Positions 692 to 46,228 of a DNA stretch of 64,000 nucleotides are shown here, piece by piece (within the stretch, counting starts at the first letter, position 1; the number at the start of each line of letters is the position of its first letter). Where the stretch lies: NCBI GenBank assembly GCA_041662245.1, contig JBAZSW010000006.1, forward strand, positions 10,442-74,441, given 5' to 3'. The notes under the pieces were generated by a model. It saw only the letters and a list, made by a program, of their open reading frames with translations, made no database searches and had not been told where the DNA came from. The stretch comes from Parcubacteria group bacterium (GTDB lineage: Bacteria > Patescibacteriota > Minisyncoccia > Moranbacterales > UBA9337). The position numbers and the translations under genes are program-made.

Positions 692-2425
692 CTAAACTTG
701 GATATTTTGCAATTCGCTTAATTTTTTGTATACTCCACCGTGATTTATAAGTTTCTGGTGATCGCCTGATTCCACTATTTTCCCGCCTTCAATTACCAAA
801 ATTAAATCCGCTCTACAAATAGTGCTCAAGCGATGAGCAATCACAAAGGTAGTTCTATTTTTCATTACTTCTTCCAAAGCACTCTGCACATATTTTTCCG
901 ATTCGCTATCTAAAGCACTAGTAGCTTCATCTAAAATTAAAATCTTAGGATTTCGTAAAATTGCTCGAGCGATAGCGACTCTTTGTTTTTGTCCAGTAGA
1001 TAATCGTACTCCTTTTTCTCCTACTATTTGCTCATACTTATCGGGAAATTTACTTATAAAATTATGACAATTGGCTAATTTTGAAGCTCGAATAATCTCT
1101 TCTTCTGTTGCTTCTAATTTAGAATAAGCAATATTATTTTTTATTGAATCATTAAAAAGATCAACTTCTTGAGGCACAATAGCAATATTGTCTCGCAAAT
1201 CTTTTAATTTTATCTTTTTTGTGTCTATCCCATCAAATAAAATGTGTCCTTTTTGAGGGATATTATAAAGAGAAATAAGATCTACTAAAGTTGATTTCCC
1301 TTCTCCACTTTTGCCAATAATTGCTACCATTTTTCCGGCAGATACTTTAAAATTTATATTTTCCAAAATAATTTCTTTTTCGTAAGAAAAACCTATATTT
1401 TTAAATTCAATATCTCCTTTGGTATTTTTTAATTGAATTGCATCTGGCGCATCATAAATCTCAGTAACCTCATTAAATATCTTTTCTGATCTTTTAATTG
1501 TCGCCAATCCTTCTTGCAATTTTTTATAATGACCACCTAACATATTTATTGCTCCAGAAACAAAGTTAATATAAGCGATTAACATCACAAATTGACCAAT
1601 GGTTATATTATTTTTACTTACCAAATAAATTCCTGTTCCGAATAAAGCAATAATAGAGAAAGTTGAAATAAGATTTTGCCAAAAATATAAGTTCATCCAC
1701 ATTATCACTCTTTGCTGGCTGATATTAAGACCCCTATTTATCGATTCTCTATTTTTTATATCCTCAAATTCTTCTCTAGAATTTGATTTAATGTTGATTA
1801 TATTAGGTGTTCGATCAAAGATATTTCCATAATATTGTTCAAAAAATTTATTTATCTTTCTTTGATAAGTGATGACGGGATTGGTCTTTTTAATGGTAAC
1901 AATCACATAAAAAATTATAAAAATAATATAAATAATAGCTAGAATCCAATTAATCCAAAAAATTACCACGAAAGCTAAAAAGGACGTTATTAAATATGGC
2001 ACGATACTAAACAGGGCATAATCAATAATGTCATGCAAATAATCATCTGCTCTGGAAAATTTTTGAATCACCTCTCCAATTTTTCTTTTTTTATGGAAAG
2101 AAAGAGGCAGACGCATTAAATGCTTTATAGAATCATTCATCAAGCCAGTGGAAGCTCTATAGCCTAATTTATTGGAAAGAATTACTCTTCCTCGCATAAA
2201 TAATCCTCCACCTATTTGGAGTACCGCCCATATTAAAAGTAATAAATAAACAGATTTTTCAAAAAATCCACCTCGAGAAACAGTATCTACCACTCGACTA
2301 TAAACCAACGGTAAAAACAAATAGGTACTGTTTTCTAAAATAACAAAAACAAATGTTGTCCAAACATCTTTTTTATAAGGTTTTAAATATTTTGTTAGTG
2401 GTCGCAAATCGCTCTTTCTAATCAT
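692..2425 (-). CDS. ABC transporter, fused permease/ATP-binding protein (MsbA-like exporter)
   Basis: N-terminal 6-TM domain. Walker A 'GKSGEGKST', ABC signature 'LSTGQKQRVAIARA', Walker B 'ILILDEATSALD'. Confidence 0.85.
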   Translation of the reverse strand: MIRKSDLRPLTKYLKPYKKDVWTTFVFVILENSTYLFLPLVYSRVVDTVSRGGFFEKSVYLLLLIWAVLQIGGGLFMRGRVILSNKLGYRASTGLMNDSIKHLMRLPLSFHKKRKIGEVIQKFSRADDYLHDIIDYALFSIVPYLITSFLAFVVIFWINWILAIIYIIFIIFYVIVTIKKTNPVITYQRKINKFFEQYYGNIFDRTPNIINIKSNSREEFEDIKNRESINRGLNISQQRVIMWMNLYFWQNLISTFSIIALFGTGIYLVSKNNITIGQFVMLIAYINFVSGAINMLGGHYKKLQEGLATIKRSEKIFNEVTEIYDAPDAIQLKNTKGDIEFKNIGFSYEKEIILENINFKVSAGKMVAIIGKSGEGKSTLVDLISLYNIPQKGHILFDGIDTKKIKLKDLRDNIAIVPQEVDLFNDSIKNNIAYSKLEATEEEIIRASKLANCHNFISKFPDKYEQIVGEKGVRLSTGQKQRVAIARAILRNPKILILDEATSALDSESEKYVQSALEEVMKNRTTFVIAHRLSTICRADLILVIEGGKIVESGDHQKLINHGGVYKKLSELQNIQV

Positions 2426-2598
2426 GTAATCATAACTATTATTTCACTCTTTACTTTATCACAAAAAGAACGTTATACAAAATACCATAATCAGACGACC
2501 GCATTTGAATAGTATAGAGTAATAAAAAAATATATAAATAGGAGGTAAAAAATTATAAAACAGGAACGACGATTTCGTCTTTCCTGTTTTCAAAGCAT

Positions 2599-18893: not shown

Positions 18894-18992
18894 ATAATTA
18901 TTTCTTATATTAAATATTTTAAATAGCATTTTTATCTTCTTCATCTAAGGCTCGCCCTATCATTCGATAGGGCGTCATGTCGGATGACATGG

Positions 18993-19049
18993 CGGACCGA
19001 CGACCTACTGTTTACAAAACAGTTGCTCTACCAACTGAGCTAAGGTGGC
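18993..19049 (-). pseudogene. truncated duplicate of tRNA-Thr(TGT), 5' 57 nt only
   Basis: 57 nt identical to positions 1-57 of the intact tRNA-Thr(TGT) at 18821-18893. The acceptor 3' strand is absent. Followed by two perfect hairpins (18976-18991, 18954-18973). Confidence 0.6.
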
Positions 19050-34755: not shown

Positions 34756-35358
34756 TTATCTATCAAGACAAATCTATAAGCCGGATTCTGTCCCTTAAAA
34801 ATTAATTCAAGGGGGCAATCATTTATCTAGCCATATTGTTACCAATATGATCATTAGCAGCACTCCGCCACTGCATAGCAGTGGAATAATCAAATAACAA
34901 TTTACAAGATACAAACAAATTTCAAATCTCGGAAATCAATATTTCAAACAGGTCTGTTTGAATTATTGGAAACTGATCATTGTTTATTATTTGGAAATCG
35001 CATCTTGATACTTGAAATTTCCAATGCTACGCATTGACGACACGGCCTTGCACCAAGTAGGGTTTACCACGTTCTTCTATTGCTAGAGAACGAGAATTAT
35101 AGCTACAAATTTCATTGCTTCTGCAGAAATGCCAGCAACAAAAAATAAACATTAATTCACTTTTCACGTTTCTCCCATTACTTGTAAGTAATAGGATAGT
35201 ATTGTCTCTGTGGCACTTTCCCGTGATTTATCTCGCGATAAATCAGGTGGGCATTACCCACTACCTATATGTTGATAAATCAACATAGTGTCCGGACTTT
35301 CCTCTCGATATATTTAAAAAATATATCCAGCGATTGCCCGATTTGCCTTGATAGATAA
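34756..35358 (-). ncRNA. rnpB: RNase P RNA (bacterial type A), about 600 nt with expansions
   Basis: Minus-strand 'GAGGAAAGUCCGGACAC' (P4 5' strand, + 35288-35305). 'ACAGAAUCCGGCUUA' (P4 3' strand, + 34776-34790). 'CUAGAUAAAUGAUUG' matches the E. coli 'CUAGAUGAAUGACUG' region. A 19-bp P1 helix pairs the ends (UUAUCUAUCAAGGCAAAUC / GAUUUGUCUUGAUAGAUAA). No genuine ORF in 34.57-35.50 kb. Confidence 0.8.
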
Positions 35359-42093: not shown

Positions 42094-45000
42094 CTATCTT
42101 TTTATAGTAATGACAATTTTTTCTCCATCAATTACAAATTCTTTTTCTAAATCTACTTTCGGGGATTTATTTTCCCTAGAAAGAACTTCGTCGGCCAATG
42201 TTTCTTTGGCAATAATATTTCTTAAATTTTCATCACCAAAAACCTCATTTGCCCCATCATACCATACCTTTATGCGATTGTCGACTTCATAGCCTGCTTG
42301 CTTACGCATTTCTTGTATAAAACGAATAATTTCTCGCGCTTGTCCTTCGAGTTTTAATTCGGGAGTAATTTCTGTATCTAGCTCAATAGCTAAGACATCA
42401 GCTGTTGGCTTATTTGTTTTGCCAGACAAAACATCCTTCATATTCGTTGTTTTAATAATAGCTTTGTGTTCTACTTTATCACCCTCATTTTTCCCAACAA
42501 CATAAGCTATATTTTTAACATTAACTTCTTCTTTTATTATTTCCAAGAGCTCTTCACTTAATCCACAATTCTTGATTCTTAATTCACCCAAAGGTTGTCT
42601 GACTTTTATCCCGCTCTTGGCTCGAAGCTGTAATCCAATGTTTACAATCTCCCGCACCGCTTGCATATCCAAATTTATTTTTTCATCAATCAAACCCTCA
42701 TCTGCCACCGGAAAATCAGCCAAATGCACCGACAATAAGGCCTCCTCCCCTCCCTGAGGGGAGGATTGAGAAGGGGTGGAAATTAAATTTCTAAATATTT
42801 CTTCACTCACAAACGGTGTAAACGGTGCCATCACCTTGGAAAGCTCTACTAAAACATAATACAAAGTCTGATAGGCTTCATTTTTATCACCATCGTTTTC
42901 ACTTTTCCAAAATCTCTTTCGACTGCGACGAATATACCAGTTGGACAGATTATCGACAAATTTTGGCAAAAGCCTCGCGGCTTTATGCAACTCATAATTT
43001 TCCATATGCAGATTAAATTCTCTAATCAACATATGCAATTCTGAAATAAGCCATTTGTCCAATAGGCCATTTAATTTTTGCGGATTAAAATTTTTATCCG
43101 CTTCAAACTTATCAATCTCAGCGTAAAGCACAAAAAAAGAATAGCTGTTCCAAAGCATTCGCATCATTCCACGAGTGATTTCCCCCACTTCATTCTCGAT
43201 AAAATTCATATTTTGAGCCGCCACCACAGGAGAACTCATCAAATAATAACGCACACTATCTGCTCCGTATTTCTCAAACATTTCCATCGGATCAGGATAA
43301 TTTTTTAGTTTCTTAGCCATTTTCTTTCCGTCCTCGGCTAATACGATTCCATTTACTATCACATTTTTAAAAGCGTTGCTATCTTTTATCCCGCTGGCAA
43401 TTACATGCTGATAATAAAACCAAGCTCTGGTCTGATCTATTCCTTCAGCGATAAAATCAGCTGGAAAACTTTCTTCAAATCTATCTTTATTTTCAAATGG
43501 ATAATGTTTTTGAGCATAAGGCATCGAACCACTGTCAAACCAAGTGTCTAGCACATCTGGCACTCTTTTCATTTCTCCTTTACACTTTTCACACTTGAAA
43601 ATAATTTTATCAACCACATGTTTGTGTAGATCATTAATTTTTTCTCCACTAATTTTTTCAAGTTCTGCGATAGAACCGAAAACTTTTTTTTCTCCACACT
43701 CTTCACATACCCAAATCGGCATTACACTAGCCCAAAAACGTTGACGACTGATAGACCAATCTCTCGCCCCCTCCAACCAATTACCAAAACGTCCTTCTTT
43801 TATATTAGCCGGAGACCAATTGATATTTTTGGCTAGCTTTAACATCTTATCTTTTATTTTCGTTACTGCTACAAACCATGAACTCGTCGCATAATTTATC
43901 AATGGAGTATCACAACGCCAACAATGCGGATAGCTGTGCTCAAATTTTTCTTTATGAAACAAATTTCCATTTTTCGCTAGATATTTAATAATTTCTACGT
44001 CAGTAGCTTGTGGGTTTTCAATCGGCTTTACATTCAACCCTGCTAACTCTCCCATCTCATCCTTAAAACTTCCATCCATTGCCACATGTTGTATAAAGGG
44101 AAGCTTTTTTTCTTTCCCTAATTTCATATCATCTTCACCAAAAGCCGGTGCAATGTGAACCACTCCCGTTCCTTCATCTGTTGTCACAAAATCACCAGCA
44201 TAAATTTTCCAACCATTTTCCCTATTTTCCAAGTTTTCATCTTTACTATAAAAATCAAAAAGCGGTTTGTATTTTTTACCAACTAAATCTTTACCCTTAA
44301 ATTCTTCAATAATTTTATATTCACTATCCTTAAAAACATCTGTCAATCTATCCTTAGCTAAAATAAATCTCACTAGCTTACCCACACCCTCATCTTTCTT
44401 TTCTATTTTTACATAATTAATATTTTCACCAACTGCAAGTGCCACGTTTCCTGGTAAAGTCCAAGGTGTTGTCGTCCAAGCTAAAATAGAGGTCTTGACC
44501 TCCCCTCCTCCCTGAGGAGGGGATTGAGGAGTGGTGTCTTCGCCATTGTCAGAAATAAATTCAAACTCTGCGATCACACTCAAATCCTTCACATCCTTAT
44601 ATCCTTCGGAAACTTCTTGCTGCGAAAGCGTGGTTTCACAACGCGGACAAATATGCATAGAGCGATAATCTTGGTAAATTAAATCCTTATCCCATAATTC
44701 TTTAAAAACCCACCAAACACTCTCCATGTAATCTTTATCCATAGTGCGATAAGCATTTTTCATATCTGCCCAGCGTCCCAACCTTGGAATAAGTCGCTCC
44801 CATTCATCTACATATGCCAAAACTTTGCTACGACAAAGTTCATTAAATTTTTCTACACCCATCACTTCAATATCTTTTTTCTTCTTGCTTCCCAATTCTT
44901 TTTCTACAATGTTTTCAATTGGCAAACCATGACAATCCCAACCCCATTTACGCTGCACATAGAACCCACGCATCGTCCAATATCTCGGCACTACATCTTT

Positions 45001-45192
45001 CAAAAGACTCCCCACGATATGTCCATAATGAGGAGTGCCTGTCGCGAAAGGAGGTCCATCATAAAAAGTATATTCTTTGGCACCTTTGCGATTTTCCATT
45101 GATTTTTCAAATATTTTATTTTCATTCCAAAAATCGATGATATTTTTTTCCATCTCCGGAAACTTTTGATTTGATTCAACTTTCTTAAACAT
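42094..45192 (-). CDS. ileS: isoleucine--tRNA ligase
   Basis: 1032 aa. HIGH-type motif 'PHYGH', KMSKS-like 'KMAKKL', editing domain, zinc knuckles 'CPRCETTL' and 'CWRCDTPL'. Confidence 0.9.
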   Translation of the reverse strand: MFKKVESNQKFPEMEKNIIDFWNENKIFEKSMENRKGAKEYTFYDGPPFATGTPHYGHIVGSLLKDVVPRYWTMRGFYVQRKWGWDCHGLPIENIVEKELGSKKKKDIEVMGVEKFNELCRSKVLAYVDEWERLIPRLGRWADMKNAYRTMDKDYMESVWWVFKELWDKDLIYQDYRSMHICPRCETTLSQQEVSEGYKDVKDLSVIAEFEFISDNGEDTTPQSPPQGGGEVKTSILAWTTTPWTLPGNVALAVGENINYVKIEKKDEGVGKLVRFILAKDRLTDVFKDSEYKIIEEFKGKDLVGKKYKPLFDFYSKDENLENRENGWKIYAGDFVTTDEGTGVVHIAPAFGEDDMKLGKEKKLPFIQHVAMDGSFKDEMGELAGLNVKPIENPQATDVEIIKYLAKNGNLFHKEKFEHSYPHCWRCDTPLINYATSSWFVAVTKIKDKMLKLAKNINWSPANIKEGRFGNWLEGARDWSISRQRFWASVMPIWVCEECGEKKVFGSIAELEKISGEKINDLHKHVVDKIIFKCEKCKGEMKRVPDVLDTWFDSGSMPYAQKHYPFENKDRFEESFPADFIAEGIDQTRAWFYYQHVIASGIKDSNAFKNVIVNGIVLAEDGKKMAKKLKNYPDPMEMFEKYGADSVRYYLMSSPVVAAQNMNFIENEVGEITRGMMRMLWNSYSFFVLYAEIDKFEADKNFNPQKLNGLLDKWLISELHMLIREFNLHMENYELHKAARLLPKFVDNLSNWYIRRSRKRFWKSENDGDKNEAYQTLYYVLVELSKVMAPFTPFVSEEIFRNLISTPSQSSPQGGEEALLSVHLADFPVADEGLIDEKINLDMQAVREIVNIGLQLRAKSGIKVRQPLGELRIKNCGLSEELLEIIKEEVNVKNIAYVVGKNEGDKVEHKAIIKTTNMKDVLSGKTNKPTADVLAIELDTEITPELKLEGQAREIIRFIQEMRKQAGYEVDNRIKVWYDGANEVFGDENLRNIIAKETLADEVLSRENKSPKVDLEKEFVIDGEKIVITIKR

Positions 45193-45248: not shown

Positions 45249-45286
45249 TTGCATTTTACTGCTACGCTTTGAAGTGTGGAAGTAAA
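45249..45286. repeat. 38-bp perfect direct repeat, copy 1 (ttgcattttactgctacgctttgaagtgtggaagtaaa)
   Basis: Identical to 45850-45887. Lies 57 bp upstream of the ileS start. Confidence 0.8.
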
Positions 45287-45293
45287 TGACTAT

Positions 45294-45839
45294 TTAAAAA
45301 TATTTAGTCATTCTCTTCAATTTCTTATATAGATCTGTTTTTTCTTTCATCTTATTCATTTGCTCCACAACCTTTCTAATTTCCTCCCTTTGCTTTTTGT
45401 TGGAGTTCTTTATAATATTCTCCAAAACAATTTCCGGCCAATAATACATGGGATATTTTTTCTTTATATTGCTAAAATTTCTTTTAAAATAATCGTCTTC
45501 TTTTACAATATCTTTGCCCTTAGTAATCTCCACTGCTTTGCGATAGCCTTCTCCTGAAATATTTAGCCACTCTCGTACTCTAGCAATTGTTCCATCTCCT
45601 ACCTTTAATTCATCTTTTATTTCCTCATAAGAAAACCCATCCAATATCATTTCTGCAATTTTTAATCTTTTGGAAATCATTTTTACTTCATTGACAGTAA
45701 GTAAGTCACTTAAAAAACCTGCTATTTCTTCTGGCTTTTTTATTTTAGACACAGCCAAACATAGCTTATAAAACATCTTTCCCAAGTCTTTCTTATTCAC
45801 ACTCTCTTTTTTACTTGTATTCTCTTTTAATTTATCCAT
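45294..45839 (-). CDS. TrpR-like YerC/YecD family DNA-binding protein with C-terminal extension
   Basis: 'LSDLLTVNEVKMISKRLKIAEMILDGFSYEEIKDELKVGDGTIARV' resembles the YerC/YecD HTH. 181 aa. Confidence 0.45.
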   Translation of the reverse strand: MDKLKENTSKKESVNKKDLGKMFYKLCLAVSKIKKPEEIAGFLSDLLTVNEVKMISKRLKIAEMILDGFSYEEIKDELKVGDGTIARVREWLNISGEGYRKAVEITKGKDIVKEDDYFKRNFSNIKKKYPMYYWPEIVLENIIKNSNKKQREEIRKVVEQMNKMKEKTDLYKKLKRMTKYF

Positions 45840-45849
45840 AAAAATAAAA

Positions 45850-45887
45850 TTGCATTTTACTGCTACGCTTTGAAGTGTGGAAGTAAA
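45850..45887. repeat. 38-bp perfect direct repeat, copy 2
   Basis: Identical to 45249-45286. Lies 11 bp upstream of the YerC-like ORF start. Confidence 0.8.
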
Positions 45888-45899
45888 ATAGTTTTTTTA

Positions 45900-46185
45900 A
45901 TTTTATAATTTTCGTAGCATAAAAAAACAAAAAATCCCTACGCAAAAATTGCATAAGGACGAATAAATCGTGGTACCACCTTAGTTTAGCTTGTAGTTTT
46001 TAGATTTTTAGTTTGTAGTAAAAAATACTACTATCTAAAAAGTTAATCGCTACCAGCTCTTAATTTCAGCTATTACGGGCTTACCCGATAAGGTCTACTC
46101 ATCAAAAAGACTTTCTTCTTATATTCTCTCGCTTATTAGGCGAATTCAAATGGTGATAGCCACCCTACTGGAGAATTTTAATTGA
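45900..46185 (-). promoter_or_regulatory. candidate T-box riboswitch leader (with upstream sigma70-like promoter at 46192-46220)
   Basis: Minus-strand RNA carries 'AAGGUGGUACCACG' (+ 45968-45983), one mismatch from T-box consensus AGGGUGGNACCGCG. Followed by a hairpin (45934-45958) and U-run (45920-45933). Upstream promoter TTGCCA-17-TAATAT. Confidence 0.45.
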
Positions 46186-46228
46186 CAAGTTTATATTACA
46201 TTAAAAATATTTTTTTGGCAATAATTTT

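Follow-up and report, generated by a model that had tools for sequence, protein, structure and literature searches.

A probable isoleucine-specific T-box leader with an ultrashort Stem I upstream of a yerC-ileS operon in a Parcubacteria bacterium

Organization of the yerC-ileS locus

Within a 64,000-nucleotide (nt) stretch of contig JBAZSW010000006.1 from a Parcubacteria group bacterium (hereafter the window), we analyzed an RNA leader, a candidate T-box riboswitch, together with the two genes that follow it. The leader extends from promoter through terminator (46221..45924; all features of the locus lie on the minus strand and are given by window position) and precedes a yerC-like gene (45294..45839) and ileS (42094..45192). 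The former encodes a YerC/YecD (HisR) TrpR-family helix-turn-helix protein of 181 amino acids (aa), matching PF01371 (E = 9e-18) and TIGR02531 (59.1 against a cutoff of 42.2), and the latter an isoleucyl-tRNA synthetase (IleRS) of 1032 aa, matching the TIGR00392 equivalog (952.8 against a cutoff of 621.4) and Pfam tRNA-synt_1 (E = 6e-137). These matches bear out the order of T-box, YerC/TrpR-like open reading frame (ORF) and ileS given in a preliminary description of this DNA. The gene rfbC ends immediately upstream of the promoter (46193..46221), a sigma70-like sequence found by promoter scan and composed of a -35 box TTGCCA (46221..46216), a 17-nt spacer and a -10 box TAATAT (46198..46193). 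As had also been described, with a distance of about 290 nt, it lies upstream of the terminator, ~287 nt from its end.

A search with the Rfam T-box model, RF00230, using permissive filters gave a match at 45952..46157 that spans all 219 model positions and scores 38.9 bits, corresponding to E = 4.6e-07 in a 701-nt local region and E = 4.2e-05 when both strands of the whole window were searched with all 4227 Rfam families. No other match at E <= 0.01 in the window falls outside tRNA and RNase P. The 3' half of the leader is aligned with high posterior probability, and the sole large deletion reduces 69 positions of the upper Stem I to 2 nt.

Relatives of the leader and covariation

An alignment of YerC homologs led to 63 genome loci, all from Patescibacteria, and this set was enlarged by a metagenome pattern scan and by look-ups of intermediate homologs, yielding 18 further distinct leaders. 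In six of the 63 yerC loci (L001-L006, the closest) ileS directly follows yerC, and GGTGGTACC occurs upstream in exactly those six. Genes downstream of the other 57 yerC loci are heterogeneous, with no common function, which makes the link between yerC and ileS specific to the window's clade. The architecture of the window's leader recurs in nine relatives (L001-L005, L099, L185, L187 and L193), all ordered T-box, yerC, ileS, while a simpler Stem I is found in nine others (L006, L070, L072, L125, L126, L145, L147, L171 and L195). Among the latter, L006 has the order T-box, yerC, ileS; in the remaining eight the leader stands directly upstream of ileS and there is no yerC, an arrangement seen in at least nine related leaders overall. 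Annotations of the relatives' IleRS proteins name Moranbacteria, an ACD aquifer bin or 'Patescibacteria group bacterium', and the IleRS of the most distant relative, a plain-type locus from a distant Patescibacteria lineage, is 39% identical to that of the window. Most simply, these arrangements would go back to a T-box that immediately preceded ileS, yerC having been inserted later in the clade of the window.

In a 15-sequence alignment of the family (alignment A2), 96.5% of cells are paired, against 28-53% when pairing partners are slid; 12 of 25 pairs have changed on both sides, and none of 500 shuffles reaches the observed score. Hairpin tips were excised to obtain alignments of fixed length. 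The shuffle controls ignore phylogeny, whereas the slid-partner controls account for it, and the two agree. These results bear on the suggestion that the leader resembles a T-box by chance or is the non-functional remnant of one that has decayed, as its sub-threshold Rfam score, its weak antiterminator and the reduced nature of CPR (candidate phyla radiation) genomes might indicate. We consider this highly improbable, given the E value of the match at window scale, the retention of every functional element, with compensatory changes, in 18 distinct homologous leaders, and the strict association with ileS; moreover, covariation contradicts decay.

Stem I and the specifier

In the window's clade, covariation supports folding of the Stem I domain (46123..46176) as a three-way junction of helices P1, P2 and P3 (alignment A3, nine distinct sequences). 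From 5' to 3', the first strand of P1 (AUUCU, 46176..46172) is followed by J1/2 (CCAGUAG, 46171..46165), the specifier hairpin P2 (46149..46164; GGUGG-CUAUCA-CCAUU, with 5 base pairs (bp) and a 6-nt apical loop at 46159..46154), J2/3 (UGAA, 46148..46145), the variable hairpin P3 (46144..46128; UUCGC-CUAAUAA-GCGAG) and the closing strand of P1 (AGAAU, 46127..46123). The apical loop of P2 presents the specifier AUC (46157..46155) followed by a purine, A, at 46154. The preliminary description had expected an AUC codon but had not located the specifier loop; comparison with the 18 relatives shows that AUC is what this loop contains. Every leader possesses a hairpin of 4-5 bp with a 6-nt loop NNAUCR (R, purine), in which AUC is invariant and is followed by A or G, in the 15 sequences of alignment A2 as well as in three further leaders. 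In all 18, the specified amino acid, isoleucine, agrees with the ileS gene located downstream, directly or after yerC.

Four of the five pairs of the P2 stem change on both sides, with 98.7% of cells paired across 15 sequences. In alignment A3, pairing of P1 extends to 100% of cells and three of its five pairs have changed on both sides (variants AUUCU/AGAAU, ACUCU/AGAGU, AUCUC/GGGGU and GCCCU/GGGGU), and P3 in 94%, its loop being unconserved. Taken together, P1, P2 and P3 are paired in 96% of cells, against 53-68% with slid 3' partners, and 0 of 500 shuffles reach the score.

In relatives with the simpler Stem I, a textbook kink-turn (K-turn), GGC-RAU-GA...GA-GCY, flanks the hairpin on both sides; RF00230 aligns its own K-turn there and contracts its 76-position upper stem to the 6-nt loop. 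In the window this motif is replaced by AGUAG...UGAA and the P3/P1 junction, and the Rfam model places its K-turn on P3. A k-junction is reportedly a K-turn elaborated into a three-way junction, as described in work from the Lilley laboratory. By analogy with that topology, the junction of the window may be a K-turn to whose non-bulged strand a third helix has been added: when compared with the plain K-turn leaders, this strand carries P3 as an insertion, located after the G-A region where the specifier hairpin begins and before the closing P1. In contrast to a k-junction, the purines of the G-A/A-G tandem are not strictly kept in these leaders, the window having AGUAG...UGAA and its relatives AAUAG...CAAA or GGAU...GAAA.

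Several other assignments within this domain were tried and rejected. The P3 loop CUAAUAA (AUA-A) resembled a specifier at first because the Rfam model took P3 for Stem I, but this loop is unconserved in relatives (UUUUA, GAUGU and others). Pairing of AAUUC with GAAUU as a lower stem of the specifier hairpin is disfavored by covariation, which supports AYUCU/AGARU, i.e. P1 (Y, pyrimidine), through ACUCU/AGAGU in L003 and L193 and AUCUC/GGGGU in L185. UUC following GAA was dismissed as a phenylalanine specifier, as these nucleotides are paired in P3 and show a compensatory change in L005. Finally, pairing between the specifier hairpin and the T-box sequence, seen in the minimum free energy fold of the whole leader, is non-specific, since GGUGGU can pair with any RYYRYY.

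The domain thus displays a specifier in a terminal loop, a short Stem I, no elbow-binding module and an ileS target, as in the ultrashort class of T-boxes; a long Stem I with an AG bulge and a distal loop, which form the elbow-binding double T-loop, is absent. Might a canonical class I T-box nevertheless be present, whose long Stem I and specifier loop merely escaped recognition? Class I T-boxes typically have the ~290 nt total length of this leader, whose 3' half is canonical. However, the covariance model deletes the 69 upper Stem I positions noted above, the specifier sits in an apical loop and not in a side bulge, and Stem III (71 nt) together with P3 explains the length. Further, a promoter of the form TTGCNN-16/17-TANNNT occurs in 10 of 10 window-type loci, and in all ten only 23-29 nt separate the end of its -10 box from the specifier hairpin, too few for a long Stem I to fit into the transcript. 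We regard a hidden long Stem I as scarcely credible. In this respect the preliminary description, which saw the 'classic geometry' of a T-box attenuator, has to be revised: Stem I is ultrashort, without a distal module for binding the tRNA elbow, and the ~290 nt are due to Stem III, ~70 nt long, and to an additional hairpin.

Stem II, Stem IIA/B and Stem III

Stem II (46088..46122), where RF00230 also aligns its own Stem II, comprises a base of AUAAG (46122..46118) and CUUAU (46092..46088), an S-turn of nearly invariant letters (AAGAAA, 46117..46112, opposite AGUAGA, 46099..46094), and a variable tip. Two-sided changes occur at all five pairs of the base, in which 98.7% of cells are paired. 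The Stem IIA/B element CGGGUAAGCCCGUAAUAGCU (46068..46087), read as CGGGUAAGCCCGUAAUAGC, contains helix IIA (CGG/CCG) and a candidate IIB pairing of the xGC with GCx type, between loop AGC and linker GCU. IIA is paired in 100% of cells with scarcely any variation, and IIB in 93%, its outer pair showing two compensatory changes and three mismatches; we regard the IIB pseudoknot as plausible, if weakly supported.

A linker with RAG purines, UGAAAUUAAG (46068..46059), leads into Stem III (45988..46058), for which folding predictions give a 71-nt imperfect hairpin, against ~20 nt in the Rfam consensus. It is followed by AAACU (45987..45983), with AA flanking. In 15 of 15 members Stem III is a single hairpin, of 53-76 nt and 21-30 bp (z -1.4 to -9.4), that ends exactly 5 nt before helix A1 of the antiterminator. 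The S-turn of Stem II, IIA/B and a Stem III with adjoining purines, which characterize T-boxes, are thus all present, IIB being the part with weak support.

Antiterminator, terminator and mode of control

The antiterminator (discriminator) domain (45955..45982) is aligned by RF00230 with high posterior probability and begins with the T-box sequence, the 14-mer AAGGUGGUACCACG (= AAGGTGGTACCACG; 45982..45969). Compared with the consensus AGGGUGGNACCGCG, this 14-mer carries two substitutions, G2A and G12A, each matched on the partner strand, and GGTGGNACC has a single occurrence in the 64-kb window. Its segment GGUGGUACCACG forms the 5' half of the antiterminator and UCGUCCUU (45962..45955) the 3' strand, giving helices A1 (AAGG/CCUU) and A2 (ACGA/UCGU) around a 7-nt T-box bulge, UGGUACC (45978..45972), whose UGGU is complementary to the 3' ACCA end of a tRNA. 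A1 and the bulge are invariant, while inner pairs of helix A2 covary. The UGGN-NCCA interaction is itself a prediction, and from it UGGU would predict a discriminator base A73 in the cognate tRNA.

Downstream lies a terminator hairpin, GUCCUUAUGCAA-UUU-UUGCGUAGGGAU (45960..45934), of 12 bp including G-U pairs, with the U-tract TTTTTGTTTT (45933..45924) directly 3' of it. It was the top terminator-like site in our scan, which detected four sites compared with 0.6 expected from shuffles. The GU-containing hairpin and U-run of the preliminary description are recovered here; the placement after the 14-mer stands too, although the gap is 8 nt (45968..45961) and not 13. The 3' strand of the antiterminator overlaps the first 6 nt of the 5' arm of the terminator (GUCCUU, 45960..45955), rendering the two structures mutually exclusive, in agreement with the alternative pairing involving GGUGGUACCACG that had been proposed as a check. 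In the window, the constrained antiterminator fold has a predicted energy of -3.2 kcal/mol versus -13.9 kcal/mol for the terminator. In 15 of 15 members an equivalent hairpin of 8-22 bp precedes a U-rich tail and overlaps the antiterminator by 4-13 nt; the stem sequences differ (e.g. CCUUAUGCA/UGCGUAGGG versus CCUUAAACA/UGUUUAAGG).

Given the U-tract, the distance to the next start codon (yerC, 45839, ~95 nt past the hairpin) and the lack of a sequestered Shine-Dalgarno (SD) sequence there, we classify the platform as transcriptional. Its decoding architecture and target gene are those of the actinobacterial ultrashort class (bioRxiv 10.1101/2023.02.28.530422), which would favor a translational T-box that sequesters the ribosome-binding site. 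Against this, a U-tract follows the hairpin in 15 of 15 members, the nearest start codon is as distant as just stated, and in plain-type loci 20-150 nt separate the U-tract from the ileS start codon downstream. A real sequestrator also looks different: in L160, an unrelated leader described below, CCUU pairs with AAGGAGG just before AUG. Translational control by this leader is, in our estimation, very improbable.

Five relatives (L001, L002, L003, L072 and L185) carry an extra hairpin of 25-30 nt in the loop of helix A2, absent in the window, that raises the predicted stability of the antiterminator from about -3 to between -12 and -19 kcal/mol. This insertion recalls 'stem Sa' of staphylococcal glyS.

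Interpretation as an isoleucine-specific T-box riboswitch

The elements of the leader, their conservation, the covariation of their helices, the mutual exclusivity of the 3' structures and the link between specifier and ileS are established by the present analysis. From these sequence features, we conclude that the leader is very probably an isoleucine-specific T-box riboswitch governing the yerC-ileS operon through transcription attenuation. It appears to be an isoleucine-specific variant of the T-box class in which an ultrashort Stem I decoder is coupled with an intrinsic terminator. It has a long Stem III and, specific to this clade, a three-way-junction Stem I and a YerC regulator cassette. 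The tRNA-sensing attenuator put forward in the preliminary description is thereby upheld, Stem I and specifier being present, antiterminator and terminator being mutually exclusive, and relatives showing covariation. Its Firmicutes precedent for T-box control of ileS holds for the gene and not for the host, which is a Parcubacteria/Moranbacteria (CPR) bacterium, its proteins having identical or near-identical counterparts annotated from metagenome-assembled genomes of Parcubacteria group or Candidatus Moranbacteria.

As regards tRNA binding, the sensing of aminoacylation, docking by Stem II and the point where transcription starts, the following predictions lean on solved actinobacterial ileS T-box-tRNA complexes and on the general T-box mechanism. 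Transcription from the conserved sigma70-like promoter would start ~10-15 nt upstream of P1. The decoding module would fold first, the ultrashort Stem I displaying AUC and the following purine in its 6-nt loop, and Stem II with its S-turn and then IIA/B would fold after it. The GAU anticodon of tRNA-Ile could then pair with AUC, the tRNA elbow having no distal Stem I module to contact. Judging from the solved actinobacterial complexes (PMC7583486), this codon pairing would be stabilized by the S-turn of Stem II. Past the ~70-nt Stem III, UGGU in the bulge would pair with the free 3' ACCA of uncharged tRNA-Ile, and the tRNA would stabilize the otherwise weak antiterminator (~-3 versus ~-14 kcal/mol), permitting readthrough into yerC and ileS. 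Charged tRNA would give no such stabilization, so that the terminator would form and transcription would stop at the U-tract (45933..45924).

Several points count against this interpretation. At Rfam gathering thresholds no T-box is reported in the window: the RF00230 match suggested as a check is full-length, but its 38.9 bits do not reach the gathering score of 93, and relatives score 34-63 bits. We attribute the low score to the absence of ~70 nt of upper Stem I, and the unreached gathering score means that standard annotation overlooks the whole family. Selection of the family required a hairpin flanking NNATCR, which somewhat inflates the pairing percentages of Stem I; its compensatory changes are not circular, and Stem II, helix A2, P1, P3 and the terminator were unused in selection. 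Transcriptional T-boxes generally need an elbow-binding distal Stem I (PMC7583486), which leaves co-transcriptional operation of an ultrashort Stem I unproven. Operator- and promoter-like elements past the terminator, described in the following section, could partly uncouple yerC and ileS from the leader. Lastly, a search of the window and of 22 fetched family loci detected no gene for tRNA-Ile(GAU), and the GAU anticodon and A73 are predicted features of the presumed ligand. The one tRNA-Ile gene in these loci has the anticodon UAU; it occurs in L126 (8101..8175), downstream of the T-box-regulated ileS, and does not qualify as the predicted ligand, since AUC calls for GAU.

The YerC cassette and its palindromic elements

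The modelled N-terminal domain of YerC resembles 3kor, 3frw and 3g1c in Foldseek searches (TM 0.82-0.87), these structures matching residues 22-110 only. Beyond it, CPR YerC-like proteins share a conserved, helical C-terminal extension of ~75 aa (residues ~105-181) that includes KKKYPMYYWPE and is lacking in HisR/TrpR proteins of <100 aa. No match to this extension was obtained in Pfam, PDB-sequence or Foldseek searches.

Between the terminator and yerC lies a 38-nt tandem palindrome, TTTACTTCCACACTTCAAAGCGTAGCAGTAAAATGCAA (45850..45887), an exact repeat of which, with no mismatch, is located between yerC and ileS (45249..45286). The same two-copy arrangement occurs in L001-L006, giving seven loci in which the sequences are genome-specific and match within each genome. 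More widely, most of the 63 yerC loci have a palindrome [ATACT-N3-ATACT]-N2-6-[AGTAT-N3-AGTAT] 20-90 nt upstream of yerC, and many carry a second copy right after the yerC stop codon. In L029, L035 and L043, an inner half-site, TAGTAT or TATCAT, is preceded by TTGACA at a distance of 17 nt, such that operator and core promoter overlap. From these sequence patterns, the tandem palindromes are likely operators of the HisR/TrpR-family YerC protein, and they could affect T-box readthrough as a roadblock, act as autoregulated internal promoters, or both. TAAAAT following the palindrome was considered as a conserved -10 box and rejected, as it is the outer half-site of the palindrome itself, which weakens the internal-promoter possibility.

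In Bacillus subtilis, YerC is identified as HisR; this repressor of the TrpR family responds to histidine and has a palindromic operator of 20 bp (PMC9413887). The first gene of the window's operon belongs to the same YerC/YecD family, and its ATACT/AGTAT half-sites, 8 bp apart, resemble the GTACTAG half-sites and tandem binding of Escherichia coli TrpR. Unlike these proteins, the window's YerC has the extra C-terminal region of ~75 aa; its putative operator consensus differs from the cacTTTA-N6-TAAAgtg of HisR, and the regulated neighbor is ileS and not the his genes, with DNA binding and effector of this YerC being putative.

The arrangement raises an alternative, in which the T-box governs mainly yerC while ileS, and possibly yerC, is expressed mostly from YerC-controlled promoters at the palindromes, T-box control of ileS being weak or vestigial. 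Two exact 38-nt copies precede yerC and ileS and co-vary per genome in 7 of 7 loci, palindromes of this kind in other Patescibacteria overlap with a promoter, TTGACA-17-TAGTAT, that lies upstream of yerC, and our promoter scan flags TCCACA-16-TAAAAT in both window copies. On the other hand, TAAAAT coincides with the outer half-site and the -35 region is unconserved between genomes. Further, the terminator scan predicts no terminator-like site between 45934 and the ileS start, so readthrough from the T-box should reach ileS. The isoleucine specifier and all functional T-box elements are also invariant in the yerC-containing clade, which argues for continued selection tied to ileS. We therefore judge expression of ileS chiefly from such promoters to be unlikely, though it has the strongest claim among the alternatives, and retain T-box attenuation of the whole operon as the preferred interpretation.

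In L185 an additional ORF of 137 aa without a Pfam match (2114..2527) separates yerC from ileS, and no obvious palindrome precedes yerC. In L193/L194, a close relative, IleRS has 1140 aa (L193 gene 1803..3263) and matches a NUDIX domain, which suggests an IleRS-NUDIX fusion under T-box control.

Relationship to known T-box classes

The hallmark of short Stem I T-boxes is a specifier 'mounted in an apical loop' (PMC7583486), and the ultrashort class is translational, has a terminal-loop specifier and always regulates ileS (bioRxiv 10.1101/2023.02.28.530422). All short Stem I T-boxes described have ileS as target and AUC as specifier, and examples given in these sources include ileS leaders of Mycobacterium tuberculosis, M. 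smegmatis and Nocardia farcinica (PMC7583486; PMC11297988; bioRxiv 10.1101/2023.02.28.530422). By comparison with published descriptions of this class, the leader of the window agrees with these actinobacterial leaders in that its very short Stem I shows AUC and a purine in the apical loop and lacks a distal module for elbow binding; Stem II and its S-turn, IIA/B, Stem III, a T-box bulge and an ileS target are further shared features, and in plain relatives (L006, L070, L126, L195 and others) a K-turn flanks the hairpin. It differs in its Patescibacteria host, in having an intrinsic terminator and U-tract in place of an SD sequestrator, in a Stem III of ~70 nt, in the presence of yerC between leader and ileS and, in the window's clade, in the replacement of the K-turn region by a three-way junction with an extra hairpin. 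With class I transcriptional T-boxes (RF00230; e.g. B. subtilis tyrS and glyQS) it shares the T-box sequence, the antiterminator with its UGGN bulge, a competing terminator, Stems II, IIA/B and III, and regulation of an aminoacyl-tRNA synthetase gene. In contrast, it lacks the ~70 nt of Stem I that hold a side-bulge specifier, the AG bulge and the distal loop, the absent distal part being the interdigitated T-loop module (38.9 bits versus 93).

The class II model of PMC7778990 was searched in Actinobacteria only, and our full-text search of a searchable library found no literature linking T-boxes to CPR/Patescibacteria, though an earlier mention may exist. To our knowledge, gene regulation in CPR/Patescibacteria is almost unexplored, and the present leaders place tRNA-sensing riboregulation in this group. 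We tentatively raise a broader possibility, which on balance we doubt, that Patescibacteria possess a T-box class of their own, as yet unannotated, in which an ultrashort decoder free of elbow contacts, of a kind otherwise known from translational switches alone, drives a co-transcriptional terminator, and to which Moranbacteria add YerC in series as an amino-acid-sensing repressor. Within such a class, the ~70-nt Stem III might provide extra time for tRNA capture, and the tandem YerC operators, which flank yerC and precede ileS, could exert roadblock or promoter control. If true, IleRS synthesis would integrate tRNA-Ile charging with a small-molecule signal. The present leaders also challenge the working assumption of the field that transcriptional (kinetically controlled) T-boxes essentially require a long Stem I with elbow contact and that an ultrashort Stem I is peculiar to translational ileS leaders of Actinobacteria. 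They offer a natural test case of whether recognition of the anticodon and 3' end suffices for a co-transcriptional decision, with the long Stem III or the three-way junction as candidates to compensate for the missing elbow contact. The yerC cassette and its operators likewise provide a handle on YerC-family function outside histidine metabolism.

Additional observations

The metagenome scan also returned L160, and two further leaders of other kinds were noted in metagenome loci. L160 (contig Ga0..., GC content 0.49) contains, ~260 nt ahead of core position 335, a short-Stem-I T-box with a K-turn and the apical loop CUAACAA (AAC, possibly for asparagine). A helix that sequesters the SD, CCUUGUGUU...AACACAAAGGAGG-N5-AUG, precedes an ORF resembling the N-terminus of an asparaginyl- or aspartyl-tRNA synthetase; confirmation would make L160 a translational T-box of the ultrashort type with a target other than ileS. 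L154 is a reduced-Stem-I T-box with a terminator and a side-bulge specifier resembling AAG (lysine) above a K-turn, and L140, likewise with a reduced Stem I and a terminator, stands upstream of an ORF resembling seryl-tRNA synthetase.

Elsewhere in the window, a region adjoining a cluster of Thr, Tyr, Thr and Trp tRNAs (18978..19043, minus strand) matches the Rfam tRNA model at 37.7 bits over model positions 7-64 only; it received no ARAGORN call and may be a truncated or unusual tRNA. Finally, a class A RNase P RNA (34761..35349, minus strand) measures 589 nt compared with 367 model positions, with several large insertions (including blocks of 56 and 128 nt), and represents an expanded RNase P RNA in a CPR bacterium of reduced genome.

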